64,000 nucleotides of DNA. Origin: Selaginella moellendorffii (lineage: Eukaryota; Plantae; Lycopodiophyta). The stretch's first letter is position 1. Every line of letters begins with the position of its first letter. Shown here piece after piece: positions 30,037 to 58,009 of the stretch. Location of the stretch: the NCBI RefSeq assembly GCF_000143415.4, contig NW_003314449.1:1-64000 (forward strand), in the 5' to 3' direction. Below the pieces are notes generated by a model. It saw only the letters and a list, made by a program, of their open reading frames with translations. It was not told the origin of the DNA and searched no databases. The translations under genes were made by a program, and so were the position numbers.

Positions 30037-30632
30037 CTTTTGTAAATCTTGTAATAAATCTTGCAAATTAATAAAGTAAAATATTTCTATCACTCAAAGT
30101 GTCGTTTCTCTCGATCATTTGTACTTGGGTCAGTTTTGGCAAGCTGACTTCGGCACTTCGGTGCATGGGTCCAATCCATAACCATGGGGATACCTATTAT
30201 AGACTGATCACAAGTCCCCGCCTCTCTCTTGATGACTCCTTTTCAAAAAAGGGGCGTGGTCGTGTAAACAACTTAATCTGCCAGTTTATAATAGTTGTCT
30301 AAATCTTCCCGACGGGGTTGATTTCTTGCTCAGGGGCAGTTGGGCCTCTGGCCTTCTCCCTATATCCTTGCGGGCAGGGATGTATCATTCCTTTGTAAGC
30401 TGAGTGGTACTCGGAGCAGCAAGGGTGGCTAACTCCATTGGTCATTTCCTTGTCGGCGACGGCCGGAGGGTGTCTGGGTCTTAACGTCTTTGGACGTAGA
30501 GGAGAGGTCGTTCCATAACTCATTTAAGTCGGTGTATTTCCCACATAGTGTGCTTTCCGTTAACTTTCGAAGTTGTTTCCTTGACGGTTTGCTAGACTCG
30601 GGTATGCATCGACGAGGACGTCGATCTTCCCC

Positions 30633-30645
30633 AAGGGGGGGAGAG
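30633..30645 (+). promoter_or_regulatory. Polypurine tract
   Basis: aaggggggga gag directly before the 3' LTR. Confidence 0.9.
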
Positions 30646-32100: not shown

Positions 32101-32677
32101 ACTCGGCAGTATAAATAGGATAGACGAACAGGAAAACGGATCCCCATCCCACTCACTTGTACTCGCGCTGTACTGTGTTTTTCTGATATTCAATTGAGCT
32201 GTGAGATTGCTTCCTACACTGTGTCTGGGGATCAACATTGTGTCATGCATTCTTCTTTCTCTCTTCTTTATTCTACTTCTTTACTTCTCAAGCTGACCCT
32301 CTGTTTGTCATGTTTGTAGATTCTGTGGCCTGTGCCATCCTTACCCACCTTCGACTTGTTAGCGGCCTGTCCTTCATCTTTCAGGATAGTTGGTGTTTTC
32401 AACCAGCCAATTGGTCTCCCCTACATCCTATCATTGCTAGGGTTTCATCTCTAGCTGGCGACCAAGGCATTTCTGTTCATCTCACTATTCTCGTACCCCA
32501 TCTCATCTGTTTTCCCCTACCCACTATTCATCCATCCCTTTCTTACCATCCTATATTTTCTTAATCTTCCTGTCAGTGACATCACTCCTTTCCATGCCTT
32601 TGGTGAATAGGAATTTATTTCAATCATCACATGGTGACCACACTGGGATGGTTGTCATAGAATCTACGATTGCTTGA

Positions 32678-32701
32678 AAGCTCTATTTCGTTAAAGTGGG
32701 A
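32678..32701 (+). repeat. Left TIR (24 bp)
   Basis: aagctctatttcgttaaagtggga. Confidence 0.93.
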
Positions 32702-33293
32702 TTTATTCAGTAAAATGGGACTAGGTACAAATTTTCAAGTATTTGAAAATGACGTGAAATTATATGTTTTTTGTCCAGGGGCTAGACATATCTGGGGCAT
32801 GGTGACTAGTGCGGTGACTTTGTGTCCAGACTGAGTCCATCTGGTTGTATAATAAATCTCATTGTCAAGGTGAACAAGCCGAATCTGAAGCTAAAGAAGA
32901 GCGATGGCATGCGCGCACACACTATTTGTTTGTTCATTGAGCGTGTGGTGAGCTTTCCAAGATGAACGTCATTCCTATTATCCAGACATATAACTTAATG
33001 GTGAGAACATTTAGATATTATTCAATGTTATCTTTTTCTAACGAATCTAATTGTGAAGGTGTAGCAAGAGGCATTGCTAGTCTGGAGAAGTCATTTAACT
33101 CATTTGACCCTTAGTGTATTTTCATGAAACTAAATAACATTCATATTATTAAGGAATTTCTCTAGTACCTTTTTTTTACGACATAGAGGCTTGCATTTCT
33201 TTCAAAGGTGATTTAGTAAAAGGCCTTAGGGCACATGCCATTCTATTTCTCAGACCGGTATTAAGATATACTAGTGCAAAGGGCCACATGCCA

Positions 33294-36200
33294 TCACGCC
33301 TCCTCTGATTCAGATTCGGATTGTTCACCTTGAAATAAAATACATTAGAAACTTAGTAAAGGAATATCAATGAATCTCACCTTGAACCCGGGTTATGAAT
33401 GCTCTTGCTGCATCTCTTGCATGGTCTGGAAAGGTGATGGTGGCACTCTGCTTCCGCATCCAACCATGCACAACATTATCCACTGATATGCTCATGCTGG
33501 GATCCCTTGGATTCAGCACCCATCTCTTTTCTAGGCAATCCTTCGTATATCCAGAACTTGGCTTGAACCACTCCACAGTTACATTGAAGGAGTTAGTTTC
33601 CGCGTCCTCCTCTGCATCAGTGATGCAGCGCCCCACCCATATCATTTGTTTTTTATTACTGGGTCTGACAAGCACGACCATTCCTTTGCAGACCTGTACT
33701 GGATTGAATGCTGAATCCGGCTTCTTGTTCCTCGGCCCACAATAGTGATCCTCAACATCGTTATCTGTCACTGCATTTCCAGAGGACATTGTTCCGCTAC
33801 TATCTGGTGCTCTGGGTTCTAGCCAAAAGGACTCTTCCAATTCTTCATATACAACCGGCCCATTTTGGATAGCAGATATAATCTTCTCCCAGTATTCGAG
33901 CAAAGGCTTGCACCTCTTAAAATAGGATTCTCCACCAAACACCAACCCCCTCTTCCAGAAGGCAATATGCTGTCTAATCCCGGCCACTATACTTTCCTGG
34001 TCTTTGAGTCCATCCGGGTGCATCGGCCGTGGGGAACCCTGAGGAATCATAGGTTCCCCAGTTATGGGATCTCTCTTGAAGAGTTCAATGCCGTCCACTG
34101 GCAGCCACACTGTATCCCATTCTCTCATCTTGTACCTCATCACTGGAGCACCGTCACGCATGCTGAAATGAAACTGAAGAGGCTTGGAGTGGCCAATCAG
34201 CATTTTGGATCCGTCCCTGATGTAGCCTCTTACAAACCCCTTAAAGTCTGGAACCTCTGTCACAAGTGCAGCTTCAACAGTGCCTTTGATGCAATTTTGG
34301 AATTCATCGTAGAGTTGTGGGAGGGTGAGGACATTGGATCGCCGGAGGGACTCTGCCAGGTGACTGAACATGGCATCGACGTCTTCATGAGTGTGCCCAA
34401 CCATGAGAAAGCCAAGTGTAACCGTTTCAAATATGCCTTTGGCAACAAGCATCACCAAGTACGCGAAGACGTACATGTTTTTGTTCTCACTGCCAGCATT
34501 GTCTGTTTGGAGCAGAAGATGGGGTGGAAGGCCACATCGGCCGCAAGAACTTCCTTGAGATTCTGCTTCGTTTGGATGAGGCTGTGCATTCACCGGGCGA
34601 CCAGCCTCGTCGGAATGGCATGAGGCCTCACGTGATAACCCTACAATCTGACGGCCAAAATATTCACTGGGATGGCATGGGGCCCCACGCGATACTGCAA
34701 GCCTTTGCTCCTCCTCCAGCTGAACCCTGTATGGGGTTCGATCGACAAGGGCCTTATGCAAGGGTTGGCCGTTCAGCTCAGTCTGCGCACTTTGCAGTGA
34801 CCTTAAGTGTTTTGCTAGGGACGCAATCATCATGTTTGCACCCCCGCCACCCCATAGAGGTACAAAGAAGTTCCCATAGTTCTGGGCACCATGCCCATGA
34901 GCGATTATGCCAAACAGAGACACAGGCAGTTGCATGGATGAAGAGATTGCCTTGGGGGCAGGATTGAGTCGAGGTAAGCACGTCTTTTTCTGATCCATTT
35001 TGTCGTGGATGATGCAGAGGTAAGAGTCAGGTCTCTCCATGGAGAGAATCCTGTTATGATAATATGCAGTCCTGCAGCTTCTCTGCTTGATGTTGTGGTC
35101 GAGCCGCCTTCTAACCAACGTCTCTCGCTCTTGAGCGCTGCAAGAATTCTTCGACAAAGCCATTTTGATAGCAGTGCACTCGTCACACTTTGAAAAGCTG
35201 GAGTACTTTCCTATACTCACATCCCTGAACCTGTTGCTCCACAATCTACTAAATCTAGATTGGCTCAGCTTCCTGTAGCCATTACTCTGGAGTTCCCGAT
35301 TCACATCTTCCAATATGGCCCCCTTGGTATACATGGAAGGGAGAACTCGTTGGGTGTCTCGTGTTCCATCTTCCAAGAGGCGGGTTTTATGTGGTTGCTG
35401 CTCGCTACATGTCTCGACAAACCTCTTGAAGATTGCCTCTCCATATACAACATGACCCCTGGTTTTGTGCGTACCGTCGTTCCCATGGACTGCCTGTTGA
35501 ACCCTTTGTTCCTCGAACTCAGTTTTGATTCTGTAGAATGTGGTTCGAGGGACTCCATAAATGATTCTCCATGCCTTCATGCAGACCAAACCCCTCTGGA
35601 AGACCATGCCCCCCACCTGATGTTCTGAAGCATCAACAGATGACCGTAATGCCTCATACACAAAATTGCGAGCTGCCTTCCAGAACAATGTCTTGTATCT
35701 TGCTCTCTCCTCTTCAATAGCATCCCAATCAGCATGTTGACAGCACCTCCTCTTGCAACAAGCAACTGTCGAAACCATTCGAACCTCCATCGCCATTTTC
35801 TGCCTTTTCGGTTCGTTGCTCAGATCCCTTTGGCTGCGCTGTAGGAAGGTGTACTTTCTTTTCCCATGAAGAGATGTTCTGTCATCAGTTGTAGTGGTGT
35901 TTGATTGTGAATCCTTCACATTCTCAAACACTAAATGCCTCAATTTCCACCGCACAATGCTTCCAATAGTCAGACTGTTTTCTTCTGTGTCAACAACCTC
36001 TAAAATCGCAACTCCAATATCATCCCAGCCCAATTCTTGATTAGCAACTGCATCTCTTGGATCGACAACTGTGGCTAAGCCCTCAGCTACCACCTCCCCC
36101 TCGGGGTTGTTTAGAAACACCTTTGCCTGAATCCATGTAGCACGGTTCTTAAGATCCACGGAGGGAACATGCGTCGCACTTGCGCTGTCCCCAACATCTG

Positions 36201-36435
36201 CTTTCTTCTGCACATTTTTCAAGGCAACAACAACATTTACCCCGACGACCATCTCTCCTCGTTCAATAGCGACCACATTCCCATCGAAGACAGTCTCTAC
36301 TGATACAGCAGCATTGCCTTCCCCAAGCCTTTGACAGTGTATAACAAAGTTCCGATCCATAGACACAAGGGTCCCTTTTGCAACTCTCTTCCCACCATTC
36401 AAAATGTAAACCTTTTCCCCAACCCTGAAGGCCAT
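33294..36435 (-). CDS. Intact transposase of about 1030 aa (Sola-related / DUF7869-type DDD core), with two N-terminal Tnp1/En-Spm-like modules and a C-terminal SH3/BAH-like beta domain
   Basis: 1022-aa open ORF 33367-36435. Motifs CCKRRC, VCMKAWRIIYGV..HGN, FSKCDEC, IIHDKMDQ, LQTDNAGSENKN and FLMVGHTHEDVDAMFS. A probable terminal 52-nt intron (33380-33329) adds GEQSESESEEA*. Confidence 0.9.
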
Positions 36436-37730
36436 TCTGAAAGTGCAGAAAAGAAGTTAAGACCATACAAAAAATGATTGGAGAATGGCCTAAATCATAA
36501 CATACCAAACAACCTCAATAGCATGAGGCCACATGCCATTATTCAAACATGCTATTGACACCCACATGAAATTTCGCATTCACAAAATTGGCATGAGGCC
36601 TCATGCCATCTTGATATACACACAGCTGCAGGCAAGTAAAAACATACATGACAATACGCTAGCCATGAAATTGCAAGGGCCCAAGATGGCATGTGGCCTC
36701 ATGCCATTTCTAAATGTGGTCCTAAACCATTCCATGGTGAACATACCAGGAAGCACAAGTGCCGAATATCAAGAGGAAGCGGTAGCCACACCAAAGACAG
36801 TGCCGCTCGCAACACCGCAACTACTCGTAGCGCCGCTCACAACACCGCAACTGCTCGTAGCGCCGCTCGCACAAACTGCCACTCGCATAAACTGCCGCTC
36901 GCAATGGCGCTCGCAATGCCGCAACCGCTTGTAGACGCATAAACCACAGCTCACAACGCCGCTTACACAAGCAGCGCTCACTGCGCTCAGCGGAACCAAG
37001 AACACGGCACACAAAAATGATAGACCTAGGAATGAGTTCGAGAATTCAAAAATAACACACGCTTGAATGTCACATCAAATCCTCTGACAAACCAAATCTT
37101 ATGATTCCTCTGACAAATTTCAAACTGAGTAGCTTCTAGACTTTGCTGTCGGAGGTTGAACTTTGTCACATCATGTCCTTGCCTCGATCCAGCTGTGCCA
37201 TGTCAGTGATTCGAACTTTGCCATGCCATGTCAGCGATCCGCGCCAAGATTATTCGCTGTGTAAAGGAATAATTATGCTGTGTGTGTACGTCCATTTATG
37301 GCAATATAAGGCCACACGCCATTCAAAGAATAATGCTAGTCGAGCATTTTTTGGTGCATTTTTGGGTTCAAAATTGCATGAGCCCACACGCTATAAAGTT
37401 TACCTGTACCAAAAATAGAAACAGCTTTATTTACTTGGGAATTTAAGTGGTTGAGGCATTTTTAAACTTACAAACACATGCCCTACTTACATTCCTTTGG
37501 TTGCTTAAAATTCAAAAATATTATAAACCTTTTTTTTTGCATTTTCAATGTTTTCAATTATGGTTTTTGATTTTCGCAGGACCAGCCTAGTAATCTATTT
37601 GCATCCCGTCATGTTTATAGCTAGCTTTCGTTTGTCCCCTTCGCTGGCCTGAGATACATCTGCTCGGAATCTGCCTCTTACAGCATTTGCCCAGAAAGGG
37701 CATCTTTCTTCACGCAGCATTTGCCACATG

Positions 37731-37762
37731 TTTAGGGTTAGGGTTTAGGGTTTAGGGTTTAG
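37731..37762 (+). promoter_or_regulatory. Interstitial telomeric / telobox tract (TTTAGGG)~4 between the divergent genes; copy at 53838-53863
   Basis: tttagggttagggtttagggtttagggtttag. Confidence 0.85.
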
Positions 37763-39245
37763 CAATTCAGTAGCTTGATAAACATGCAAATACAGAACTT
37801 GATGCAAAATCCTTTGATATGTCACAATGCCCCTAGGACCATAAACACATTTCAATAGAGAGGGTCCTTTCATTTCATAACTCCTTACGTAGATCTTGGT
37901 GAAACCAGAGTTAGTGAAGTTGGTTTCTTGTGATCCCGCATCTGATTGTGATGTCCCTTTGCAGTGTCGATGGAAAGGTCAATGCACACCAAACTGTAGA
38001 ATCTTGGAGCAAAATAACGGTCGGATCTATGGCAAATGCCCCTGAAACATTGTAAGGCTCGTGTGGTCTCATGTGGTGTCCGATCGAGATGCTTCTTTGC
38101 AGGGTCATCAAGAAGGACATTGTATACCGTTCTGTAAAATATAGTTGCGATCTAACGGTTGGATCTCCAGGAAACTCAAAACAATCTCGCGCGTGTCAGA
38201 ATATTCTAGGAATATACTCCTATGTGCTCTTGAAAATGGCATGCGGCCCCACGCCATTCAAGAGATAATGCCAGATGACGCCGAGCATTTTTTGGTGCAT
38301 TTTTTGGGATCAAAATTGCATGAGCCCACACGCTTGAACGTCACATCAAATCCTCTGACAATTTATTTAGCTGAACATCTAGCATTTTTGGAAATACAAG
38401 ATGCTTTGGAATATCCAATCATGCATAATATAAATATAGCGAGGGTATTAAATGATATCCCAATCATGATCTTTCTTTTGGATTTCGCGTGCATGCAGTC
38501 CGAGGAATGATGACGTTGCGGATTTCTTTTGGATTTCACGCATGCATGCGCCGATCCAGAAATTAATGGTGGCGCCCAAGTCCAAGGAATGATGACATGG
38601 CGGGATTACCAACCGTCGTGACATTTCGCACGTGTGAGGTTAGGTTTTGCATTTTGCTTCGTACTCGCGCTCGCACACTCGCGCTCGCATCGCGCTCCCA
38701 CTCGCGCTCCCACTTCTCTACAGGTTTCTCGTGTGCATCGGCGTCCACTCGCGCTTGCATCACACTCGCGCTCGCATCGCGCTCGTGTGCATCGGCGTCC
38801 ATTTCAAGACACACCCAGTTTGTAACTTCGCCGCCAACTCCGCCGCCCACTCCGCCACCCACACGCAGCCCACTTGGCGTCCCGGGAGATTTCAGCGCCA
38901 CTCTCCAACTGTAAGTGGCAGAGTAGCCTTGCTGCTATGATCCGCTGCACACACAGTGCACATTCGCCAGCAAGTCCGGTTGTCACGCCTCCATTCGGCT
39001 TCAAATGGTAAGTCTTTAGGCCAAGTAGAAAATGGCATGAGGCTACATGCCATTCAGTAGCAACATTGGCATGCACCGATTGGGCTCTCGAGTGCAGTCC
39101 GGTTACAGATGGCGTGTAGCCTCACGCCATCTTAGGATGCAGCCTCAAGACATCTGATACAGTGGTGAATGGCGTGTGGCCTCACGTTATTTCCAGCTAC
39201 TAGCTTTTCATCTGTCAGCTCTAATTGTTGTGCATTTCTGAACAG

Positions 39246-42200
39246 GCAAGGAATTGCGTTCTTCTTCCAGCCACTGTCAATGTGGATGCAGAGAAGGGGG
39301 AGGAGCTCACCAGTTGGACTTTCGGGATGGAAGGCGAGGATCTGAGGCTGTACAACACAGATGGTGGGAGAAAAGAATGCATGGGGATCCTCATCCAAGT
39401 GACAGACACTCCATGCAGTTCCATGCAAGAATATGGACTGGCACTTTTGGTAGAGACAGCGTCTGCCTTCAAGATCCACCTTGCACATCCTAGCGGCTTC
39501 CCGGAGGGGGGCAGCGGCTATGAGGAATTCCTAGAGGGAGCTAGGGAGAGGTTGTCCAGGAGGCCCACAATTTCAAAGACGCTACGGGTCTATGAAGATC
39601 ACATGGAATCCACGGACCTCACCTACGGCGATGTTCAAAAACTATATTCCAACATTGAGCCGTTGAGAGTGACTCCAGTTCGCGAAGCAAAGGGGAAGGG
39701 GGTCGATCTGGAAACTACCTCGAAGCAGAAAAGGGTGGTCAAGCTCAAGCCGACGTCCGACTCTCCTGCTCCAAAAAAGAAGCTACTCAGTGATGCCATT
39801 GCCTCGGGTTCGAACACTACACCCACCAAAAAGAAGAGCCGCAAAGAGCAGAAAGAGCAAGAAGAGGCAGCAAAAATCGTCGCAGATAATAGTACTTGTT
39901 ACTATTCCAACAAAGTATATACAATCGACGTGAGCCGTATCGACATCCAAAGCAAATACAACCACAGGCTAGTATCTGATGAGTGGGTGGAGAAATTGAA
40001 GCAGAAGATGCTGGCAAGTCCAGTAACACCCGACATCGCAGACGTGATCCCCTACTACCAAAAAATGAAGGGCGAGATGAGGTTTCCAGACTTGATCAAT
40101 AGGAAGGTGTTGGACGATCAGAACATCCGGTTCTATGCCGTCTCCGGGCAGCATTCTAGCTTGGCGATGCAAGAGATAGTTGTGGATATTATGGTGGGCG
40201 AGGAGGTGAAGAAAGTCTTCAAGACAAGAGTTGTTCGCCTGATAAAAGGCAACTCGCCCCTCCGATCTATCATATACATCTCCCATGCGCAGAATGTCAA
40301 GCAAGAAACGTGCTACAAATCGGGTCTGCACGAGACATTGGCACGAACACGGAAGCTCTGGGTTCAACTGAAGAAGCCACAAAAACCAGGACAAGGACGT
40401 GCACTAGCAACTAGCGCCTGGCAGGTAAGCCTCGTTGTATGTGGCATAGCATGTGGCCTCACGCCATTTCCATTGCAGGAATTCTCGAGTCTTCTCTCGA
40501 AAACACTGGGGGTCAATGACACACTCAGCATCCATAACATTCTACTCGCGACAAAAGTTGTTTTTGACAAATGGGTAGATGTGCTGAGGAGGTACCATGA
40601 CGGGGAGTTGCCAAACTCAATGGGTGTGGAGGACGGCCGGAAGCCCAATGATTTGAAGCTCAACGCCTTGCATTTCTCGCGGTCTCTAGACGACGACGAC
40701 CTTCTGACAGTGGCTAATGCTCTTCTACGTGGTGAGGTAGTCTTCAACAAGACCAAAATGACTCCCGGCCATATTGTGACATACGAGGACTTGTGCACGA
40801 CTCTGAGAGCTCGTGCGCTATTGAAGGATTGGATCTTCGAGCAAGTGGCCGTGGAGAGGGTGAGCATCGACACCACGCAAGAGATGATGGAAGCGCTGGA
40901 GTTGTCAAATGAAGACATCGACGAGTACGTGAAGGGGGCCCCCAAGTTCATCGATCTGCTGCGGGATGCCACGAAAAGTAAAGCTGAGAAGTTGGATCAG
41001 TATCCAAATTTCATTAATATTGATGTCGACCGCCGGCTTTAGAAACAGCTCGACCCCGCAGCAGAGGCCTATCGAGAACCTTACCGGGTATACTTGAATT
41101 CAGATGAGGATCAAAGGTGGAGGAGCATCGTTTCCCGCGGAGATGAGCAGGTCAAGAACATCTTTTGTGTGATGGACTTCACAAACGAGGAGATCACTCA
41201 TGCAGACGAAGTCAGCTCCATCATTGACTTAATGGTGGGACTTGCGGAGGTGGAATCTTCAGTCCACTATATGATCTACGACTCCGAATCCTATCACAAG
41301 TTCTGGAAGGCCTTGAACGAGGTGAAGGCTCGGTTGAAAGGCAAGGAGATGCGGGAGATCCATGGGATAATGGCTAAGAAGAAGATACCGACGAATGTCC
41401 GCATCTTCACACTCGCCCTTGTTATTGGTCCTGCAGCAGAGTGGGACTGGAGTGACTTCCCAGCTTCGTTCGACAAGGCCAATCGAATTGATTTGAGGGA
41501 GGTCAATTTACCCGTGCCTGAGGAACTGAAGACGGCTATGGAGCTTTCGAATCCAAAGAAAGCTCCAGGTGCAGCATGGGAAATGCTCAGCTGGGTCTTC
41601 AACGCAATAGCGGGTGGGTCACCTGCTTCCGACTCCAAGGGCAAATGCATTGTCGAGTACAACTGCGGCGGACTATTCTTTCGAGCCGCACTACTCAAGG
41701 GTGTCCCGTGTGTTGCGGTGACAAACTCCATTGAAGAGGTGACTTCAATGGAGCATATAATTACAGTTGCCAAAGAAAAACAGTATCTTCTCTGCGAACC
41801 TGGTGAGTATGCACTTTAAGTTTAAATGTTATCTCACAAGCTCTGTATGCAGGAGCGTGGCCACCCCCAGATGCTGAAATGGCGTTAACAGCTACTATTG
41901 AAGATACCCATGTTGGGCCGAGCTCACAACCTGCACAAGGTAAGGTCACATGCATATGGATCCGCCAGTGGACTCTACTTGGCTGCAAGAGTCATCAGAG
42001 CTGGTGGAGGCTACTATCCATATCAACGCCAAGCAAGCTGACCACGCTCCACTTGATGCTGCCCATACCACTGAGTCAATCTTGTCCACGTATCCAACTG
42101 ACGGTGACCAGGCGCCATTGGACCCACATGAGGCCGCCCCAGCCGCCGAGCCGGTCGTATCCTCATTTCCAACGGACTCAACGTGTGCCCAATCGTTTGA

Positions 42201-43400
42201 CTACGCGCCGTTGGAACCTCCCTACACCGCCCCTGCTGCCTGTTCGGTCATGTCCACTTTGCCAACGGAGGCACCAGCTGAAATGGCGTGTGATCACACG
42301 CCATCGGAACCACCCCATGCCACTGTTGAGCCAGTTGTACCAGAGTCTACAGCTGAAATGGCATGTGCCCACACGCCATCGGATGCGATTGACCCCACAT
42401 TGCAGAGGAGAGTATTTCCGCCCTTCACGTTTCCTCGACCAAAACCCTCTCAACGACCATCGGGAGCAACATTCGCTAATATTGTAGATGGTAAAATTGA
42501 CTTGTACCATTTTTTATGCTGACGCATTTCATTTCAGAGTCACGGCGAAGGTACTGTATCGTTTTTGATCTGAACGGTGTCCTTTTCTCCCATGAGCGTG
42601 GCTCGTCCTCGAATGTCATTGCACCCTCCAAAGCCTGCGGTCGCAAGTTGGTCAAAAGAGACAGATTCACATTAATCACACAGGAGAAACTGCGGGATCT
42701 AATAATGACCATGCGACACTTAAAACAGAGGGCCGGGTTCAATTTGCAATTGGGAGTTTGGACATCCATGATGCGCCACAATGCATTAACATTGCTACAG
42801 ATGATGCACGATCAGACGCGAGTAATATTACCATTTGACTTTCTCCTAACGCAGGAGGATTGCTTGACTATGGTCCATGTGAGGGGTAGCAAGCCCATCT
42901 TCATCAAGCCAGAGGCTGTAGTGATGAACCGGACTGCTAGCTCAAGTGAAATCCTCATCATCGATGACTCGCCGATTAAAACTGCAGCGAACACGCACAC
43001 ATATGCAGTGCACCCCATCTCTTGCAGTATGGAAACTAGGGAGAAGAAACCGTATGTTCTGGGGGACCTTGCAAAACGGCTTGGAGCGATGGTGATAGAG
43101 AACCGGCCAGTCCAGGAGGTGGCTGCAGAAATCAACCAAATGGCAGATGGAACGGTATATCAGAAGCCATTTGATCGGACAGACACCAGTCATCATTTAT
43201 GGCATGTATATTGTCTAGCCAAGCACTATCCGCATCTCCATAATCTGCTCAACCGGATGGGTTCTTCGACCACTGAACATGAGCGTGGACGTATTAGAGA
43301 AGAGATGGCATTACTATTGGGTTTAAATCCTGATAGTGTGGAGAGTGATGAAATTCCAAGATTATTGTATAGGCGTTGGAGGCAAAAAATAACAGTCTGA
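39246..43400 (+). pseudogene. Spliced transposon cargo gene: ParB/Srx-like, degenerate N4/N6 DNA-methyltransferase-like, low-complexity linker and FCP1/NIF-like HAD phosphatase domains; one premature stop (41040) and a 1.24-kb deletion
   Basis: ORFs 39225-41042 and 41094-41819 share a frame (TAG at 41040 is CAG in copy 2). Motifs IDVSRI..NHRLVSDEWV..FYAVSGQHS, IFCVMDFT..GKCIVEYNCGG..AALLKG, and FDLNGVL..VWTSM..IIDDSPIK. Short GT-AG introns at about 40424-40478, 41803-41852 and 42491-42537. True start codon not determined. Confidence 0.75.
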
Positions 43401-43818
43401 GATGGCATGTATTTATTTAAAAATGTAACTTATTATGGTATGGGGTTCCATGCCATTGTATTAATATTAAAAGACAATTCTTTGAGAGGATTTGCATTAT
43501 ACTAGAAGTGTTACAGCATGTTATTGGAAGTCTACGAAGTTGTTTTATTAATAATGGGAAAGTAAAGATTGAATGGGGACTTGGGCTCCACCTAGACTCG
43601 GAGCAACTGAGCCAATATTAAAAGGATGGAAAGAAATTGGACGACGATGACAAGGAGAAGAGAGAGGTGAAGCAGTGGCAGGGGGAGGAGAAGTGATTGA
43701 GTAGACATTTCCTTGTTTAAAATAAAATGGCATGTGCCTCAATGCAGTTGAATTTTGTTATATTTATATACTATATAAAGGTTTGGAAACCTTATTTTAC
43801 AAGTGGGATAATGACAAT

Positions 43819-43842
43819 TCCCACTTTAACGAAATAGAGCTT
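43819..43842 (-). repeat. Right TIR (24 bp)
   Basis: tcccactttaacgaaatagagctt followed by ttga. Confidence 0.93.
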
Positions 43843-44229
43843 TTGAGAGTTCATTCCCTATTTCTTCTCATTTTTTGTTCTTTCCAGATTTTTCCCCATT
43901 TTTCCTATTCTATTGAGTTTTTCATCATTTTCTTGATAGTTGTAAAAAATCTCCTAAACCAGCGTGAGATTAGCTGATCAGCAGAGTAGAGAGTACCACT
44001 CAACGGAGTTATGAGGAGTGTGGGGCTACCCTATCAGACGAATTTTTATTGTGGAAAATGCCATTCTAATGGGACAAAGGAGTTCTGTAGACGGCTGGAG
44101 GATTACCTCGAGAGAAAACCGAGAGGACAAGAGTGGAATGGAAGACCATTCTTGTGCAACAACTGTGTCAAAGGAATAGCCACCTTCGCAAACTTATGCT
44201 GGAAATGTTGGTAGTAATTAGCCATTCTA

Positions 44230-46400: not shown

Positions 46401-46997
46401 AAACAAAAGTTGATGGTCAAGGACTTTCATGCTTATGCATGAAACCATGTTACATTGGTTAGATGACTTGCTAAGCAAGAGTGACAAGTTAGAGGAACAA
46501 ATCCCCTAGTTGAAGGTGCTAACTTCAAAAGGGGTGGCCCATGGGGCCAAGCATGAAGCTCTATTTCGTTAAAATGGGAATTGTCATTATCCCACTTGTA
46601 AAATAAGGTTTCCAAACCTTTATATAGTATATAAATATAACAAAATTCAACTGTATTGATTCACATGCCATTTTATTTTAAACAAGGAAATGTCTACTCA
46701 ATCACTTCTCCTCCCCCTGCCACTGCTTCACCTCTCTCTTCTCCTTGTCATCATTGTCCAATTTCTTTCCATCCTTTTAATATTGGCTCAGTTGCTCCGA
46801 GTCTAGGTGGAGCCCAAGTCCCCATTCAATCTTTACTTTCCCCTTATTAATAAAACAACTTCGTAGACTCCCAATAACATGCTATAACACTTCTAGTATA
46901 ATGTAAATCCTCTCAAAGAATTGTCTTTTAATATTAATACAATGGCATGGAACCCCATACCATAATAAGTTACATTTTTAAATAAATACATGCCATC

Positions 46998-49900
46998 TCA
47001 GACTGTTATTTTTTGCCTCCAACGCCTATACAATAATCTTGGAATTTCATCACTCTCCACACTATCAGGATTTAAACCCAATAGTAATGCCATCTCTTCT
47101 CTAATACGTCCACACTCATGTTCAGTGGTCGAAAAACCTATCCGGTTGAGCAGATTATGGAGATGCGGATAGTGCTTAGCTAGACAATATACATGCCATA
47201 AATGATGACTAGTGTCTGTCCGATCAAATGGCTTCTGATATACCGTTCCATCTGCCATTTGGTTGATTTCTGCAGCCACCTCCTGGACTGGCCGATTCTC
47301 TATCACCATCTCTCCAAGCCGTTTTGCAAGGTCCCCCAGAACATACGGTTTCTTCTCCCTAGTTTCCATACTACAAGAGATGGGTGCACTGCATATGTGT
47401 GCATGTTCGCTGCAGTTTTAATCGGCAAGTCATCGATGATGAGGATTTCACTTGAGCTAGCAGTCCGGTTCATCACTACAGCCTCTGGCTTGACAAAGAT
47501 GGGCTTGCTACCCCTCACATAGACCATAGTCAAGCAATCCTCCTGCATTAGGAGAAAGTCAAATGGTAATATTACTCGCGTCTGATCGTACATCATCTGT
47601 AGCAACGTTAATGCATTGTGGCGCATCATGGATGTCCAAACTCCCAATTGCAAATTGAACCCAGCCCTCTGTTTTAAGTGTCGCATGGTCATTATTAGAT
47701 CCCACAGTTTCTCCCGTGTGATTAATGTGAATCTGTCTCTTTTGACCAACTTGCGACCGCAGGCTTTGGAGGGTGCAGTGACATTCGAGGACGAGCCACG
47801 CTCATGGGAGAAAAGGACACCGTTCAGATCAAAAACGATACAGTACCTTCGCCGTGACTCTGAAATGGAATGCGTCAGCATAAAAATGGTACAAGTCAAT
47901 TTTACCATCTACAATATTAGCGAATGGTGCTCCCGATGGTCGTTGAGAGGGTTTTGGTCGAGGAAACGTGAAGGGCGGAAATACTCTCCTCTGCAATGTG
48001 GGGTCAATCGCATCCGATGGCGTGTGGGCACATGCCATTTCAGCTGTAGACTCTGGTACAACTGGCTCAACAGTGGCATGGGGTGGTTCCAATGGCGTGT
48101 GATCACACGCCATTTCAGCTAGTGCCTCCGTTGGCAAAGTGGACATGACCGAACAGGCAGTAGGGGCGGTGTAGGGAGGTTTCAACGGCGCGTATCAGAC
48201 GATTGGGCACACGTTGAGTCCGTTGGAAATGAGGATACGACCGGCTCAGTGGCTGGGGCGGCCTCATGCGGGTCCAATGGCGCCTGGTCACCGTCAGTTG
48301 GATACGTGGACAAGACTGACTCAGTGGTATGGGCAGCATCAAGTGGAGCGTGGTCAGCTTGCTTGGCGTTGATATAGATAGTAGCCTCCACCAGCTCTGA
48401 TGACTCTTGCAGCCAAGTAGAGTCCACTGGCGGATCCATATGCATGTCCAAATATCTCCCTTCGATTGAGATGGTATCCTCCCGTGCTACTAAAAACAAA
48501 CTCATTAGCACATTGAATCCACTATACTGTATTTACCATCAACTGCTATTGAGGAACTAGGACCGATATCACTTGGGCACACTGCTGATTCTGAAGGATT
48601 GGACATACGTTTCGACCCTTGCTTGGCACTATCCTTCCTCGACACTAAAGGCTAGAGTTTGTAAATTCAACTGAATAATCTCTACTTACCATTTGCTCTG
48701 CGACCTACATGGACAATGTTAGAAATGGTAAAAGGTTAGGAATGGATGTATTATTATTTACCTGATGGTTTGTCTTGTATGACCTTCCTCCGCTACTCTT
48801 TGGCCCCAAAGAGCAGCGGAGGAAGGTCATATAAGACAAACCATCAGGTAAATAATACCACCTCATGATCGTCACCATTGTGAGGACCATCCAAGTCCTC
48901 TTTGTCCTCCTTTTCTTCGTCCTCCTCTTCTTTGTCCTCCTCTTCGTCCTTCTGCTCTTCCTGCTCATTATCTTTCTCTGGCTCCTCATCCCCCTCTTGC
49001 ATTTCTTCCATAGGCTGCTCAGGTTGGATGGCTTGTTCTTCCAGGACCATCTTGGGAAAATCATCTGGCCGAGTCTCCATCTCAAAATACAAGACATCCA
49101 TAGCCTGTTTTAGTGCGTGACTTAGGACCGTATCCTCACCCGACTGTCTTAACATGGTTTCTGCACGTTCTTGCACCCTTCGAAGACGACGAGATGAGTA
49201 AAACGTGGCCCTGACTTGAAAAGCATCCCTCATCCATTGTACCTCTCCATTGAGATTGGGGAAGGGGAGTCCGCCATAGGAATCTGAGTCAGGAGGTGGT
49301 GACTGGCTGCTTTCACTCAGCCCTTGATCTGCAATGAATGGCATGAGCACACACGCCATAACCGCGAGGCATTACCTATCATCTTTTCGTTGCCCTTCTT
49401 CCTTTTCGAATCAACCGCCTCTGATCCCGACGACTGTCCAACATGTTTTTGCTTTTTATGACCACTATCAGTTTGAGCTTGGCTGGTGCTTGCCTGTTTT
49501 TCTTTTCAAGAAGTGTCTCCTGCAAGGAATGGCATGAGACCACACGCCATTGCAAATATAATTTGTACCTCCTTTTTTCCTATTGCTTGTCTGTTTGTCC
49601 TTCTTCGACGCGCCACCAGTGCGCTTTTCAGTCCTCGTGTCTGAATATTCACAACGATCTATAATCAAAATGGCGTGAGGCCTCACGTGACCTTACCTTG
49701 TGCAGGTTGTGAGCTCGGCCCAACATGGGTATCTTCAACAGTAGCTGTTAACGCCATTTCAGCATCTGGGGGTGGCCACGCTCCTGCATACAGAGCTTGT
49801 GAGATAACATTTAAACTTAAAGTGCGTACTCACTAGGTTCGCAGAGAAGATACTGTTTTTCTTTGGCAACTGTAATTATATGCTCTATTGAAGTCACCTC

Positions 49901-52390
49901 TTCAATGGAGTTTGTCACCACAACACACGGGACACCCTTGAGTAGTGCGGCTCGAAAGAATAGTCCGCCGCAGTTGTACTCAACAACGCATTTGCCCTTG
50001 GAGTCGGAAGCAGGTGACCCACCCGCTATTGCGTTGAAGACCCAGCTGAGCATTTCCCATGCTGCACCTGGAGCTTTCTTTGGATTCGAAAGCTCCATAG
50101 CCATCTTTAGTTCCTCAGGCACGGGTAAATTGACCTCCCTCGGATCAATTCGATTGGCCTTGTCGAACAAAGCTGGGAAGTCACTCCAGTCCCACTCTGC
50201 TGCAGGACCAATAACAAGGGCGAGTGTGAAGATGCGGACATTCGTCGGTATCTTCTTCTTAGCCATTATCCCATGGATCTCCCGCATCTCCTTGCCTTTC
50301 AATCGAGCCTTCACCTCGTTCAAGGCCTTCCAGAAATTGTGATAGGATTCGGAGTCGTAGATCATATAGTGGACTGAAGATTCCACCTCCGCAAGTCCCA
50401 CCATTAAGTCAATGATGGAGCTGACTTCGTCTGCATGAGTGATCTCCTCGTTTGTGAAGTCCATCACACAAAAGATGTTCTTGACCTGCTCATCTCTGCG
50501 GGAAATGATGCTCCTCCACCTTTGATCCTCATCCGAATTCATGTATACCTGGTAAGGTTCTCGATAGGCCTCTGCTACGGGGTCGAGCTGTTTCTGAAGC
50601 CGGCGGTCGACATCCCTCTTAATGAAATTTGGATACTGATCCAACTTCTCAGCTTTACTTTTCGTGGCATCCCGCAGCAGATCGATGAACTTGGGGGCCC
50701 CCTTCACATACTCGTCGATGTCTTCATTTGACAAATCCAGCGCTTCCATCATCTCTTACGTGGTGTCGATGCTCACCCTCTCCACGGCCACTTGCTCAAA
50801 GATCCAATCCTTCAATAGCGCACGAGCTCTCAAAGTCGTGCACAAGTCCTCGTATGTCACAATATGGCCGGGAGTCATTTTGGTCTTGTTGAAGACTACC
50901 TCACCACGTAGAAGAGCATTAGCCACTGTCAGAAGGTCGTCGTCGTCTAGAGACCGCGAGAAACGCAAGGCATTGAGCTTCAAATCATTGGGCTTCCGGC
51001 CATCCTCCACACCCATTGAGTTTAGTAACTCTCTGTCATGGTATCTCCTCAGCACATCTACCCATTTGTCAAAAACAACTTTTGTCGTGAGTAGAATGTT
51101 ATGGATGCTGAGTGTGTCATTGACCCCCAGTGTTTTCGAGAGAAGACTCGAGAATTCTTGCAATGGAAATGGCATGAGGCCACATGCTATGCAACATGCA
51201 ACGAGGCTTACCTGCCAGGCGCTAGTTGCTAGTGCACGTCTTTGTCCTGGTTTTTGTGGCTTCTTCAGTTGAACCCAGAGCTTCCGTGTTCGTGCCAATG
51301 TCTAGTGCAGACCCGATTTGTAGCACATTTCTTGCTTGACATTCTGCGTGTGGGAGATGTATATGATAGATCGGAGGGGTGAGTTGCCTTTTATCAGGCG
51401 GACAACTCTTGTCTTGAAGACTTTCTTCACCTCATCGCCCATCATAATATCCACAACTATCTCTTGCATCGCCAAGCTAGAATGCTACCCGGAGACGGCA
51501 TAGAACCGGATGTTCTGATCTTCCAACACCTTCCTATTGATCAAGTCTGGAAACCTCATCTCGCCCTTCATTGTTCGGTAGTAGGGGATCACGTCTACGA
51601 TGTCGGGTGTTATTGGACTTGCCAGCATCTTCTGCTTCAGTTTCTCCACCCACTCATCAGATACTAGCCTATGGTTGTATTTGCTTTGGATGTCGATACG
51701 GCTCACATCAATTGTATATACTTTGTTGGAATAGTAACAAGTACTATTATCTGCGATGATTTTTGCTGCCTCTTCTTGCTCTTTCTGCTCTTTGCGGCTC
51801 TTCTTTTTGGTGGGTGTAGTGTTCGAACCCGAGGCAATGGCATCACTGAGTAGCTTATTTTTTGGAGCAGGAGAGTCGGACGTTGGCTTGAGCTTGACCA
51901 CTCTTTTCTGCTTCTGGGTAGTTTCCAGATCGACCCCCTTCCCCTTCGCTTCGCGAACTGGAGGCACTCTCAACGGCTCAATGTTGGAATATAGTTTTTG
52001 AACATCGCCGTAGGTGAGGTCCGTGGATTCCATGTGATCTTCATAAACCCGCAACGTTTTTGAAATTGTGGGCCTCCTGGACAACCTCTCCCTAGCTCCC
52101 TCTAGGAATTCCTCATAGCCGCTGCCCCCTTCCGGGAAGCCGCTAGGATGTGCAAGGTGGATCTTGAAGGCAGACGCTGTCTCTACCACAAGTGCCAGTC
52201 CATATTCTTGCATGGAACTGCATGGAGTATCTGTCACTTGGATGAGGATCCCCGTGCATTCTTTTCTCCCACCATCTGTGTTGTACAGCCTTAGATCCTC
52301 GCCTTCCATCCCAAAAGTCCAACTGGTGAGCTCCTCCCCCTTCTCTGCATCCACATTGATAGTGGCTGTAAGAAGAACGCAATTCCTCGC
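46998..52390 (-). pseudogene. Cargo gene copy 2, retaining extra Lys-rich and acidic exons
   Basis: ORFs 51485-52411, 50756-51298, 49817-50752, 48844-49359, 48182-48511, 47303-47908 and 46998-47369. Its stops are at different sites from those of copy 1. Confidence 0.85.
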
Positions 52391-55300
52391 CTGTTCAGAA
52401 ATGCACAACAATTAGAGCTGACAGATGAAAAGCTAGCAGCTGGAAATAACGTGAGGCCACACGCCATTCACCACTGCATCAAATGTCTTGAGGCTGCATC
52501 CTAAGATGGCGTGAGGCTACACGCCATCTGTAACCGGACTGCACTCGAGAGCCTAATCGGTGCATGCCAATGTTGCTACTGAATGGCATGTGGCCTCATG
52601 CCATTTTCTACTTGGCCTAAAAGACTTACCATTTGAAGCCGAATGGAGGAGTGACAATCGAGGCCGGACTCGCTGGCGAATGTGCACTATGTGTGCAGCG
52701 GATCTTAGCAACAAGGCTACTCTGCCACTTACAGTTGGAGAGTGGCACTGAAATCTCCCGGGACGCCAAGTGGGCTGCGTGTGAGTGGCAGAGTGGGCGG
52801 CGGAGTTGGCGGCAAAGTTACAAACTAGGTGTGTCTTGAAGTGGACGCCGATGCACACAAGCGCGATGCGAGCGCGAGTGTGATGCAAGCGCGAGTGGAC
52901 ACCGATGCACACGAGAAACCTGTAGAGAAGGTAGATGAGCGCGAGTGGGAGCGCGATGCGAGCGCGAGTACGAAGCGAAATGCAAAACCTAACCTCACAC
53001 GCGCGAAATGTCATGACGGTTGGTAATCCCGCAATGTCATCATTCCTCGGACTTGGGCGCCACCATTAATTTCTGGTTTGCCGCGCGCATGCATGCACGT
53101 GAAATCCAAAAGAAATCCGCAACGTCATCATTCCTCGGATTGCATGCACGCGAAATCCAAAAAAAAGATCATGCTTGGGATATCATTTAATACCCTCGCT
53201 ATATTTATACCATGCATGATTGGATATTCCAAAGCATCTTGTATTTCCAAAAATGCCAGATGTTCAGCTAAATAAAGAATGGTATACAAATCCCAAAAAA
53301 TGCACCAAAAAATGCTCGGCGTCATCTGGCATTACCTCTTGAATGGCGTGGGGCCGCATGCCATTTTCAGGGGCACATAGGAGTATATTCCTAGAATATT
53401 CTGACACGCGCGAGATTTTTTTGAGTTTTCTGGAGATCCAACCGTTAGATCGCAACTAGATTTTACAGAATGGTATACAATGTCTTTCTTGATGACCCTG
53501 CAAAGAAGCATCTCGATCGGACAACATATGAGACCACACGAGCCTTACAATATTTCAGGGGCATTTGCCATAGATCCGACTGTTATTTTGCTCCAAGATT
53601 CTACAGTTTTGTGTGCATTGACCTTTCCATCGACACTGCAAAGGGACATCACAATCAGATGCGGGATCACAAGAAACCAACTTCACTAACTCTGGTTTCA
53701 CCAAGATCTACGTAAGGAGTTATGAAATGAAAGGACCCTCTCTATTGAAATGTGTTTATGGTCCTAGGGGCATTGTGATATATCAAAGGATTTTGCATCA
53801 AGTTCTGTATTTGCATGTTTATCAAGCTACTGAATTGCTAAACCCTAAACCCTAAACCCTAAACATGTGGCAAATGCTGCGTGAAGAAAGATGCCCTTTC
53901 TGGGCAAATGCTATAAGAGGCAGATGCCAAGCAGATGTATCTCAGGCTAGCGAAGGGGACAAACGGAAGCTAGCTATAAACATGACGGGATGCAAATAGA
54001 TTACTAGGCTGGTCCTGCGAAAATCAAAAACCATAATTGAAAACATTGAAAATGCAAAAAAAAAGGTTTATAATATTTTTGAATTTTAAGCAACCAAAGG
54101 AATGTAAGTAGGGCATGTGTTTGTAAGTTTAAAAATGCCTCAACCACTTAAATTCCCAAGTAAATAAAGCTGTTTCTATTTTTGGTACAGGTAAACTTTA
54201 TAGCGTGTGGGCTCATGCAATTTTGAACCCAAAAATGCACCAAAAAATGCTCGACTAGCATTATTCTTTGAATGGCGTGTGGCCTTATATTGCCATAAAT
54301 GGACATACACACACAGCATAATTATTCCTTTACACGGCGAATAATCTTGGCACGGATCGCTGACACGGCATGGCAAAGTTCGAATCACTGACATGGCACA
54401 GCTGGATCGAGGCAAGGACATGATGTGACAAAGTTCAACGTCCGACAGCAAAGTCTAGAAGCTACTCAGTTTGAAATTTGTCAGAGGAATCATAAGATCT
54501 TGTTTGTCAGAGGATTTGATGTGACGTTCAAGCGTGTGTTATTTTTGAATTCTCGAACTCATTCCTAGGTCTATCATTTTTGTGCGCCGTGTTCTTGGTT
54601 CCGCTGAGCGTAGTGAGCGCTGCTTGTGTAAGCGGCGTTGTGAGCTGTGGTTTATGCGTCTACAAGCGGTTGTGGCATTGCGAGCACCATTGCGAGCGGC
54701 AGTTTATGCGAGTGGCAGTTTGTGCGAGCGGCGCTACGAGCAGTTGCGGTGTTGCGAGCGGCGCTACGAGTAGTTGTGGTGTTGCGAGAGGCACTGTCTT
54801 TGGTGTGGCTATCGCTTCCTCTTGATATTCGGCACTTGTGCTTCCTGGTATGTTCACCATGGAATGGTTTAGGACCACATTTAGAAATGGCATGAGGCCA
54901 CATGCCATCTTGGGCCCTTGCAATTTCATGGCTAGCGTATTGTCATGTATGTTTTTACTTGCCTGCAGCTGTGTGTATATCAAGATGGCATGAGGCCTCA
55001 TGCCAATTTTGTGAATGCGAAATTTCACGTGGGTGTCAATAGCATGTTTGAATAATGGCATGTGGCCTCATGCTATTGAGGTTGTTTGGTATGTTATGAT
55101 TTAGGCCATTCTCCAATCATTTTTTGTATGGTCTTAACTTCTTTTCTGCACTTTCAGAATGGCCTTCAGGGTTGGGGAAAAGGTTTACATTTTGAATGGT
55201 GGGAAGAGAGTTGCAAAAGGGACCCTTGTGTCTATAGATCGGAACTTTGTTATACACTATCAAAGGCTTAGGGAAAGCAATGCTGCTGTATCAATAGAGA

Positions 55301-56006
55301 CTGTCTTCGATGGGAATGTGGTCGCTATTGAACGAGGAGACATGGTCGTCGGGGTAAATGTTGTTGTTGCCTTGAAAAATCTTCAGAAGAAAGCAGATGT
55401 TGGGGACAGCGCAAGTGCGACGCATGTTCCCTCCGTAGATCTTAAGAACCGTGCTACATGGATTCAGGCAAAGGTGTTTCTAAACAACCCCGAGGGGGAG
55501 GTGGTAGCTGAGGGCTTAGCCACAGTTGTCGATCCAAGAGATGCGGTTGCTAATCAAGAATTGGGCTGGGATGATATTGGAGTTGTGATTTTAGAGGTTG
55601 TTGACACAGAAGAAAACAGTCTGACTATTGGAAGCATTGTGCGGTAGAAATTGAGGCACTTAGTGTTTGAGAATGTGAAGGATTCACAATCAAACACCAC
55701 TACAACTGATGACAAAACATCTCTTCATGGGAAAAGAAAATACACCTTCCTAAAGCGCAGCCAAAGGTATCTGAGCAACGAACTGAAAAGGCAGAAAATG
55801 GCGATGGAGGTTCGAATGGTCTCGACAGTTGCTTGTTGCAAGAGGAGGTGCTGTCAACATGCTGATTGGGATGCTATTGAAGAGGAGAGAGCAAGATACA
55901 AGACATTGTCCTGGAAGGCAGCTCGCAATTTTGTGTATGAAGCATTACGGTCATCTGTTGATGCTTCAGAACATCAAGTGGGGGGCATGGTCTTCCAGAG
56001 GGGTTT

Positions 56007-57833
56007 TGTGAGACACAAAATCCCTAGGCCCCAGGGTGGAGCCGGAAGGGCGCCACATGGTAGTGGCCGAAGCGAGAGCCAAACGAGCGTAACACGTTTG
56101 GACCAAAAGCTCCGACTTGAAAAGTGAAGAGCGGGAGTGGAACTCCCAACGAATTGCTCGAGGAACAAGCACGAAGCGAGCAAAAGGCAAGGCTCCAAAA
56201 AGGGACCCAAAAGGACCAACACATGACACGTGGGAGTGTCCGAGATGGACTCGAGATGGAGTCCGAGATGGAGTCCGAGATGGACCCGAGATGGAGTCCG
56301 AGATGGAGTCCGAGATGGAGTCCGAGGTGGACCCGAGATGGACCCTAGTTGGAGTCCAAAGTGGAGTCCGAGATGGACCCGAGATGGAGTCCGAGATGGA
56401 GTCCGAGATGGAGTCCGAGGTGGACCCAAGATGGACCCGAAATGGAGTCCGAGATGGAGTCCGAGATGGACCCAAGATGGAGTCCGAGATGGAGTCCGAG
56501 ATGGAGTCCGAGGTGGACCCGAGATGGACCCGAAATGGAGTCTGAGATGGAGTCCGAGATGGACCCGAGATGGAGTCCGAGATGGAGTCCGAGATGGACC
56601 CGAGATGGACCCGAGATGGAGTTCGAGATGGAGTCCGAGATGGAGTCCGAGATGGAGTCCGAAGTCGAGACCGAGACCGGAACCGAGACCGGGACCGAGA
56701 CCGAGACCGAGACCGAGATCGGGACCGAGACCGAGACCGAGGCCGAGGCCAAGACCGAGCCCGAGCCCGAGTCCGAGTCCGAATCTGAGTCCGAGTCCGA
56801 GTCCGAGTCCGAGTCCGAGTCCGAGTCCGGAGCCTGAGAGGGTGAAAGCCCAAAGCGTTCGTCTCCCAGACCCTGGGGGGTTTGGTGAGCTCCAAAAGTA
56901 TAGTAGGGGGAGGACTGCAGTGGAGCCAGTTTGGCCAGGAAAGGCCAGTTTGGCCCAGGAAGGCCAGACCCAGTGTTGGGTGATGAACTGACCACTGGGA
57001 AGTCCAAGACTAGAGTGAATACGGACCGACAAGCGGGGTAGCTTGGTGAAGTGTTCAAGAGCCGGCTCTAGTTCCCCCGGGAGATCGACTGGCCGATGCT
57101 CCCAGTCCAAGTGTGGGTGGCACTACCTACTTGGATACCAAGCGTGGCTCAATGGAACCTCGCTCTAAGCCCATGGCTAGAGCACCTAAAGGCGATAGGT
57201 GGGGAGAGTACCCAGGTGGCTCGCGTAAGGCCACGGTGTTCCGAAATGTTGTCCCAAAGGCCCAGACTGTGGAAAGGAAGAGGAGCAGTCCTCTGGGGTA
57301 GTGACCAAGGACACAGTCATGTGGTGAGGAAGTCCCAGAGGACCGTGGGACTTAGTGGTCGGGCCTGTGGGCCTCGATCCAGTGGCAGTGTTGGCAAACA
57401 CGGCCAGGGGCAGAAAGGGACTTGGTAGGAACTGACAAAGGGACTTTGGGGAAGGCAATTCCCCAGGTCTGTGGGCATCCTAAGGATGCTAAGGAGTGGA
57501 CCTAGGATGACCACTTGTGGACACATGGCCCAGTCTTGGAGAGACGAGGTGGTGATGCAAGTGGTGTTGAACCACTAGTGCAGCAAAGGTGAATGGGCAT
57601 GGCCTTAGCGTAACGGGCCGAGATGTCAGTGGTACCTTTGGGTGTTGGTCTCAGGACCGGACACGTGGAGCACTTGGACCAGGTGCAAGTGTGGAGTGGC
57701 ATGGATGCCATTCTTGGGGCTAGCAAGTCCCAAGTCCTGAATTGGACTGATGGAGGTTGTGAATGAGACTCCTCCAAGTGGTCGGAGGTGTGGTTAAGTG
57801 ACTAAAGTAGAATGGAAAATTTAGTCATTTACA
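56007..57833 (+). mobile_element. Solo LTR (1827 bp), TSD GGTTT
   Basis: tgtgagacac...catttaca flanked by ggttt at 56002-56006 and 57834-57838. The empty site is visible in copy 1 (cagaggggtttggtctgcatg). Confidence 0.95.
56241..56830. repeat. Tandem array of 11-12-bp GAGATGGAGTCC/GAGATGGACCC units grading into 6-bp GAGACC/GAGTCC units
   Basis: Directly visible; it produces the spurious R/S-, SE- and GL-rich ORFs. Confidence 0.95.
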
Positions 57834-58009
57834 GGTTTGGTTTGCATGAAGGCATGGAGAATCATTTATGGAGTTCCTTGAACCACATTCTACAGAATCA
57901 AAACTGAGTTTGAGGAACAAAGGGTTCAACAGGCAGTCCATGGGAACGACGGTACTCACAGGGTTAGAAGGTGGCTTGACCACAACATCGAGCAGAGAAG
58001 GTAGGTAGC

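Follow-up and report, generated by a model that had tools for sequence, protein, structure and literature searches.

A Sola-like transposon family of Selaginella moellendorffii encodes a predicted ParB-methyltransferase fusion with altered motifs and carries its own dispersed palindrome

To our knowledge, accessory proteins that target their own transposon have been proven only in VANDAL transposons, and the ParB-methylase cargo of algal elements is a proposal. The Ectocarpus element Sola1-1_Ec32 carries, opposite its transposase, a gene combining ParB with an N4C/N6A methyltransferase, whose product, according to a published proposal, binds the element that encodes it and modifies it (PMC12477816). 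Here we describe a family of Sola-like DNA transposons found in a 64,000-nucleotide stretch of the Selaginella moellendorffii genome (contig NW_003314449.1, positions 1 to 64,000, hereafter the window). The second gene of the element, ORF2 (open reading frame 2), is predicted to encode a ParB/sulfiredoxin (Srx) fold and a beta-class amino-methyltransferase fold, both with altered motifs, and a 20-bp palindrome is dispersed through the element. Transposons of brown and red algae are already published with this general design, of which the land-plant form with altered motifs is a variant. No land-plant paper on this system was found in the literature searched; the supplements of PMC12477816, PMC4738411 and PMC12973397, or Repbase, may hold one.

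Compared with Sola1-1_Ec32, the present family resides in a land plant, has its motifs altered family-wide, encodes an extra HAD-like domain, counts at least 663 copies and makes target duplications other than AWWT. It also has a defined dispersed palindrome, whereas palindromes are not mentioned in the main text of PMC12477816. The family resembles the Plavaka elements of Bostrychia, in which, as far as the available part of the preprint describes them, PAG2/PAG3 include a ParB-like accessory protein, inverted repeats lie in the element, self-binding has been suggested and accessory genes shift between transposon superfamilies (bioRxiv 10.1101/2025.02.11.637652). In Plavaka, however, the fusion partner of ParB is a 2OG oxygenase, the methylase belongs to a separate SET fusion, and the repeats form tandem arrays beside the gene, whereas here they are dispersed through introns. 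As in VANDAL/VANC of Arabidopsis, an accessory protein is accompanied by a family motif enriched in the element's own non-coding DNA, with VANC binding its motifs both within introns and in intergenic DNA (PMC5735166). The VANC motif differs in being 9 bp long, non-palindromic and tandem, and the available part of that source describes neither a ParB nor a methyltransferase fold for it; VANC activity has been demonstrated, whereas anti-silencing is only inferred here. With bacterial ParB/Noc-parS the family shares the ParB/Srx fold, an invariant Asn after the motif and palindromic sites (PMC13495010), and phage loci likewise have ParB adjoining or fused to amino-methyltransferases (PMC4738411). 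Unlike ParB/Noc, it reads GQHSxxA in place of the GxxRxxA motif defined in PMC13495010, has no ParA partner in the element, and has a 20-bp site with a 6-bp spacer.

This part of ORF2 had been predicted from the DNA letters to encode a ParB/Srx-like domain followed by a degenerate methyltransferase-like domain, a prediction that the absence of either fold would have refuted. Both folds were found in the structural comparisons, although the methyltransferase part is modelled at low confidence. An AlphaFold model built from 19 sequences had a mean predicted local distance difference test score (pLDDT) of 65, with values of 66-93 across the ParB part, and a single-sequence fold prediction was uninformative (pLDDT 32.7). 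Model residues 8-171 (window positions ~39888-40380) matched ParB-N/Srx structures, which in VIA were ParB-N 5k5d (Z 8.9, root-mean-square deviation (rmsd) 3.7, 120 aligned), PadC (Z 8.6, rmsd 3.4, 99 aligned) and KorB (7.9, 3.1 and 94). Residues 403-650 (~41073-41810) matched beta-class amino-methyltransferases, with VIA giving CcrM (Z 9.0, rmsd 5.2, 186 aligned), MboIIA (8.6, 4.9 and 178) and M1.HpyAVI (8.5, 3.7 and 158). The top 15 VIA rows comprised nine amino-methyltransferases, three ParB-like proteins and three unrelated Rossmann folds. Behind two low-probability receptors, Foldseek listed Noc, ParB, CcrM and sulfiredoxin, with probabilities of 0.89-0.99 overall and 0.95-0.99 for Noc, ParB and sulfiredoxin, and gave no match at E <=0.001; its viral matches were largely ParB proteins. 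The Atlas rows were DUF3723 (0.95), described as a Starship auxiliary family (PMC11162782), ParB_N (0.93) and PF01555 (0.88). At the sequence level, neither the ParB nor the methyltransferase domain of ORF2 was detected in Pfam, NCBIfam or PDB sequences with three profiles, and phage tblastn gave no sequence-level match to the protein. On the models, the ParB/Srx fold of the predicted protein is well supported and its beta-class (permuted Rossmann) methyltransferase fold moderately supported. Between the two lies a conserved helical domain, which because of its position is the candidate DNA-recognition part.

Both sets of motifs are altered beyond the window. A search of 1.84 billion proteins returned 18 matches, 16 of them credible, from Selaginella, Riccia, Calypogeia and other records; matches P0004 and P0005 were discarded as repeat-driven false matches. 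The liverwort, spikemoss and other homologs share 20-28% identity. Across 13 aligned ParB-like sequences, some of which are close relatives and not all independent, the motif reads SGQHS in 11, DGQHT in one and SGAHS in one. Its G and H and the downstream R and N are invariant (13/13), the A is kept in at least 90%, and the R of GxxRxxA is present in 0/13; GQHS in place of GxxR, first noticed in the window, is a conserved family signature and not erosion. The invariant Asn falls where B. subtilis N112 would be, judging by its inferred position. In the methyltransferase-like part, the only residue of motif IV common to 6/6 sequences is the Asp (DFTN here, DLRR, DSAN, DATT, DFAR and DANS elsewhere), and the (D/S/N)PP(Y/F/W) catalytic motif is absent from all six. 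The three sequences that reach motif I read EYNCGG, EYGCGG and DINTGG, an E/D-x-x-x-GG pattern with no DPFxGxG. The protein therefore differs from CcrM, MboIIA, RsrI, PvuII, rotifer N4CMT and Marchantia DN4MT1, with which it shares the predicted fold and a motif order that puts the catalytic loop ahead of the S-adenosylmethionine-binding loop, in being without (D/S/N)PP(Y/F/W) or FxGxG; Marchantia DN4MT1 retains TSPPY (bioRxiv 10.1101/2021.02.12.428880).

Within the genome, MDFTN is found in 18/19 and 19/19 copies of two sets. Homologs retaining DPPY or FxGxG had been proposed as a check, and none was found among the homologs aligned, nor did any checked genome copy restore either motif. Since distant homologs have lost the same motifs and no checked genome copy restores them, the alignments support a conserved pseudo-enzyme, and a simple decay of a once-active enzyme within the Sola-like family was rejected because the motifs are common to distant homologs. 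Inactive methylase domains have been described in DIRS elements (PMC4738411). The pseudo-enzyme idea of the original prediction is thus borne out by the losses in liverwort and other homologs, that is, on grounds other than its own. It had argued from motifs altered identically in both window copies, which is not exact, because copy 2 has a stop replacing the Q of GQHS; nor is the agreement independent evidence, because the two are transposon copies 96-98% identical to each other. Of 103 pattern matches from two scans of metagenomes, none led to a confirmed locus.

The peptides quoted in the original prediction lie where it placed them (VYTIDV at 39915, FYAVSGQHS at 40131-40157, KNIFCVMDFTN at 41154, PKKAP at 41553 and EYNCGG at 41655). 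Its single feature at 39900..41802 does follow one reading frame, but this is cut by a TAG codon, is predicted to contain a 54-nt intron and is part of a transposon's second gene; the status of transposon cargo, the element's own palindromes and the breakage of both window copies had been overlooked. A model of 11 exons, separated by GT-AG introns of 38-239 nt, yields a stop-free frame of ~1,648 codons in nine of the 19 copies modelled, with all splice sites intact in seven of the nine. The modelling set consisted of 20 copies picked for an open exon 2-3 frame, one of which could not be modelled; among 150 genome copies listed, 51 have an open ORF2 frame of 863-864 codons. The predicted protein runs from an N-terminal region through the ParB-like, helical and methyltransferase-like domains to an acidic linker and a HAD/NIF-like domain. 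Both window copies of ORF2 are broken: copy 2 reads CAG where copy 1 has its TAG, but carries stops of its own. No ORF2 splice joint was found in one small contig set of uncertain type, and a read pile at L116:3516-3555 was rejected as expression, being a 40-bp chance match in which the reads continue unlike the element.

The element belongs to a young cut-and-paste transposon family with hundreds of copies (Table 1). Intact relatives of copy 1 measure ~12.3 kb, and copy 1 is 98-99% identical to 20 fetched genome copies; among these, a perfect 4-bp duplication flanks 15 of the 17 other copies having both ends visible. The 30-bp right end has 663 exact matches in the 212-Mb genome against 0 for the reversed control, and a first look at the genome gave 867 candidate members of the transposase family and 910 candidate copies of the methyltransferase-like exon. 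Divergence from the family majority is 0.4-1.0% in the 20 best-matching copies and 1.1-2.9% in a second set. A chance-duplicated host gene was rejected on the strength of the ends, target duplications and copy number. The transposase matches Pfam DUF7869 (E=1e-41), has acidic motifs at 35010, 34509 and 34398, and extends N- and C-terminally past the DUF7869 core. A 4-bp target duplication is the rule for the Sola superfamily, and DUF7869 and the GHTHED motif are what we take to be Sola markers; the label Sola-like is used because of the duplication length and these transposase motifs. The family does not show the AWWT target preference given for Sola1 in PMC3845634, AWWT occurring in 2/16 duplications. 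Copy 2 lies 2.5% from the family majority, compared with 0.7% for copy 1, and its left end was not found within the window.

The 20-bp palindrome is probably almost confined to this family. With up to two mismatches, 15 sites occur in each window copy and 0 in the 43.4 kb outside (shuffle mean 0.14), and an unbiased dyad clustering recovers the palindrome, with 14 members versus 1 in 8 shuffles. The tight form is present 3,766 times in the genome, against 0 for a control, and occurs ~3.8 times per complete copy, a rate in keeping with near-confinement. In a complete copy, 17/21 sites are non-coding (p=2e-5), and 7/9 of the ORF2 sites are in introns (p=1e-5). Each half-site has the same state, CG or TG/CA, in all of ~20 copies. 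A stem A-C mismatch is found in 8/21 sites and the inner G-C pair is kept in 17/21; the stem mismatches and the conserved inner pair make it more likely that the site acts as double-stranded DNA than as a hairpin. Inserted copies mutate like methylated DNA, with transitions at 1.95% of CG, 1.32% of CHG, 0.31% of CHH and 0.06% of A/T positions.

A PF01555 scan of the genome gave 148 places at E <=1, none above the cut-off, and the loci examined fall into two families in which the ParB-methylase gene stands head-to-head with a SWIM-type, putatively Mutator-like transposase that gave no MULE Pfam match. The motifs borne there are nearer canonical (DGNHR; D(F/L)PDG; DATAGFGS or DCTAGSGS), and in one of the two, family C, a different palindrome, GTCGGTTC, occurs six times between the two genes. 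Close kinship of the Sola-borne protein with the Mutator-borne ParB-methylases was rejected (best E 0.033 over 217 frames). At several loci (L086, L108, L070), the Sola-like element is inserted in or beside Mutator-like ParB-methylase elements. A host gene, P0001 (E=8.2e-12 in the protein search), retains the helical and pseudo-methylase parts, begins right after the position of the ParB domain, which it does not have, and shows a GC-AG intron at the position of ORF2 intron 2. No palindrome or element end was present in its fetched flanks. This gene was likely domesticated from the ORF2 module.

Table 1. Positions of the element, its predicted genes and domains, and related loci (window coordinates unless a contig is named)
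Feature	Position	Strand	Details
ParB/sulfiredoxin-fold domain (predicted)	39888..40380	+	SGQHS motif 40131-40157, invariant R 40224, N 40293
Conserved helical domain, candidate DNA-recognition part	40479..41039	+	pLDDT ~60-92; best sequence matches P0001, P0002 fall here
Beta-class amino-methyltransferase-like domain	41043..41802	+	DFTN for DPPY/SPPY; EYNCGG for DPFxGxG
ORF2, predicted spliced accessory gene, second gene of element	39005..43400	+	ATG 39005-39007
ORF2 window exons	39246-40424, 40479-41802, 41853-41939, remnant 41948-42490, 42538-43397	+	Window junctions
Predicted intron, 54 nt, in-frame	40425-40478	+	Contains one palindrome; position same in host gene
Premature stop TAG, copy 1	41040-41042	+	Separates helical/ParB part from methyltransferase-like part
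Deletion junction	41947..41948	+	1.2 kb missing, predicted exons 5-9 of copy 1
HAD/NIF phosphatase-like domain, last ORF2 exon	42538..43040	+	DLNGV replaces DxDxT; Pfam NIF E=5.2e-5, over cut-off
Dispersed 20-bp palindrome TGGCRTG-N6-CAYGCCA	32905..43747	.	
Palindrome sites, <=3 mismatches	32905, 33221, 34616, 34673, 36519, 36589, 36687, 37374, 38237, 38316, 39033, 39110, 39170, 40447, 42284, 42359, 43436, 43728		
Sola-like DNA transposon copy 1, complete	32678..43842	.	11,165 bp; ends and target duplication
Target-site duplication TTGA, 4 bp	32674..32677, again at 43843-43846	+	
Left terminal inverted repeat, 24 bp	32678..32701	+	Begins AAGCTC; 24/24 identical to right end
Right terminal inverted repeat	43819..43842	-	
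Transposase	33367..36456	-	Open frame 1,029 codons; head-to-head with ORF2
Copy 2, inverted, older, broken	46556..57960	-	Stops in ORF2; transposase interrupted by insertion
Mutator-like ParB-methylase loci	L096-L097 C83:620400-631200; L109/L110 on C133, C39		
Host gene P0001/XP_024528744	L125 C11:2393860-2395281; L126 C30:1101117-1102538		Two copies, 97% identical

Other repeats were seen in the window. The insertion in the copy 2 transposase (~56010-57833) resembles a long terminal repeat (LTR), contains an 11-12-bp tandem repeat and is related to an LTR at 19468-21010. A young Ty3/chromovirus-type LTR retrotransposon, with LTRs 96.9% identical and one pol stop at 29191-29193, occupies 24204-31569, and a few telomere-like TTTAGGG units lie within the element at 37729-37762, between its two genes. 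The contig starts with a 3.6-kb inverted duplication (1-3625 and 8364-11988, 99.9% identical), which is either a very recent event or an assembly artefact.

We tentatively propose, at somewhat less than even confidence, that the ORF2 protein is a ParB-methyltransferase fusion with altered catalytic motifs, binds the palindromes of its own element and acts as a VANC-like anti-silencing factor in a brief developmental window. A dimer would load on the palindromes of its element, as ParB binds the palindromic parS (PMC13495010). The ParB fold, to judge by its invariant G, H, R and N, may bind a nucleotide and gate the dimer, the helical domain may read both half-sites, and the methyltransferase fold would no longer methylate and might instead grip DNA or dimerise. 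The family has both CG and TG/CA half-sites in fixed form, which suggests that 5-methyl-C may be tolerated by the protein and that silenced copies could be loaded as well. Loading at many sites over 12 kb, possibly with sliding, would exclude silencing or recruit transcription, and the HAD-like tail might serve as an effector. Self-binding is supported because an unrelated Mutator-like family with a ParB-methylase also carries its own, different palindrome. A bolder form, which we consider rather unlikely, would be a eukaryotic ParB-parS system in which a nucleotide-gated clamp, loaded on methylation-tolerant intronic palindromes, slides and lifts silencing, the dead methyltransferase fold reads methylated DNA, and the host has domesticated the reader module.

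Several observations weigh against the proposed anti-silencing fusion. The model is weak in its methyltransferase part (pLDDT 35-70), for which unrelated Rossmann folds reach similar scores (Z 8.4 and 8.1, within 1 Z unit; 7.7-8.4 for the three in the top 15), and comparing profiles with seven phage methylases revealed little similarity (probability 4.7%, E=0.0085). For the helical domain, modelled within the whole protein, no helix-turn-helix match or look-alike was reported, and dyad clustering gave no palindrome cluster in the second Mutator-like family, B. The ORF2 coding bins were empty in three RNA runs of one study with 9.2 million reads each. Changes within the family are neutral, 36/101 of those shared by at least three copies being synonymous versus 31% expected (p=0.2), so that selection on ORF2 is seen only across species, in the distant homologs. 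Finally, transition rates at CG (odds ratio 0.94, p=0.69) and CHG (odds ratio 1.24, p=0.16) were equal at <100 bp and >300 bp from a palindrome. As no lasting local protection is found near the palindromes, any anti-silencing must be brief or limited to few copies.

The alternative that survives best, though we consider it unlikely, is that the transposase binds the palindromes and that ORF2, without sequence-specific loading, has some other target, such as RNA polymerase II via its HAD-like domain. In CACTA and hAT elements the transposition proteins bind internal repeats, which speaks for this arrangement, as do the extra terminal regions of the transposase past its DUF7869 core. The sites are not clustered at the ends, however, most being in ORF2 introns and between the genes, and a palindrome array also accompanies ParB-methylase in an unrelated transposase class. 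Less probable still would be a structural role in which the ORF2 protein binds the palindromes as a transposition helper, compacting the 12-kb element and joining its ends as a bridge of the ParB kind, with no role in chromatin. Palindromes spread along the entire element and the lack of local protection from methylation-driven mutation would fit such a bridge, and ParB spreads along and bridges DNA (PMC13495010); it would leave unexplained the retained methyltransferase fold and a host gene that has no ParB but retains the helical and pseudo-methylase parts.

An active, non-canonical enzyme that methylates its own element or modifies it in another way through the conserved Asp and the acidic/Gly-Gly motif seems improbable. 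The motif IV Asp is indeed invariant (6/6), the acidic residue and GG are kept in 3/3, and the Ectocarpus relative is predicted to make N4-methylcytosine or N6-methyladenine (PMC12477816), but 6/6 sequences lack both prolines as well as the aromatic residue, the residues after the Asp vary in every homolog, and a change of SPPY to APPA kills the activity of rotifer N4CMT (PMC8885841). That the palindromes are RNA hairpins controlling short-intron splicing, unrelated to ORF2, is very improbable: the intronic position of most ORF2 sites would suit it, but the stem mismatches, an inner pair that would give a 2-nt loop and several sites between the two genes do not.

Whichever reading holds, the family offers a concrete test, with a defined 20-bp site, stop-free copies and ~660-900 targets in one small plant genome. 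The sister Mutator-like family, with its different ParB-methylase and palindrome, allows specificity swaps, and a host gene from the same module is at hand. If the sliding-clamp reading is true, the family would provide a programmable tool against silencing and a case of a ParB-type sliding clamp at work on eukaryotic chromatin; if it is false, the family would still represent a well-defined pseudo-enzyme clade conserved from liverworts to spikemosses.

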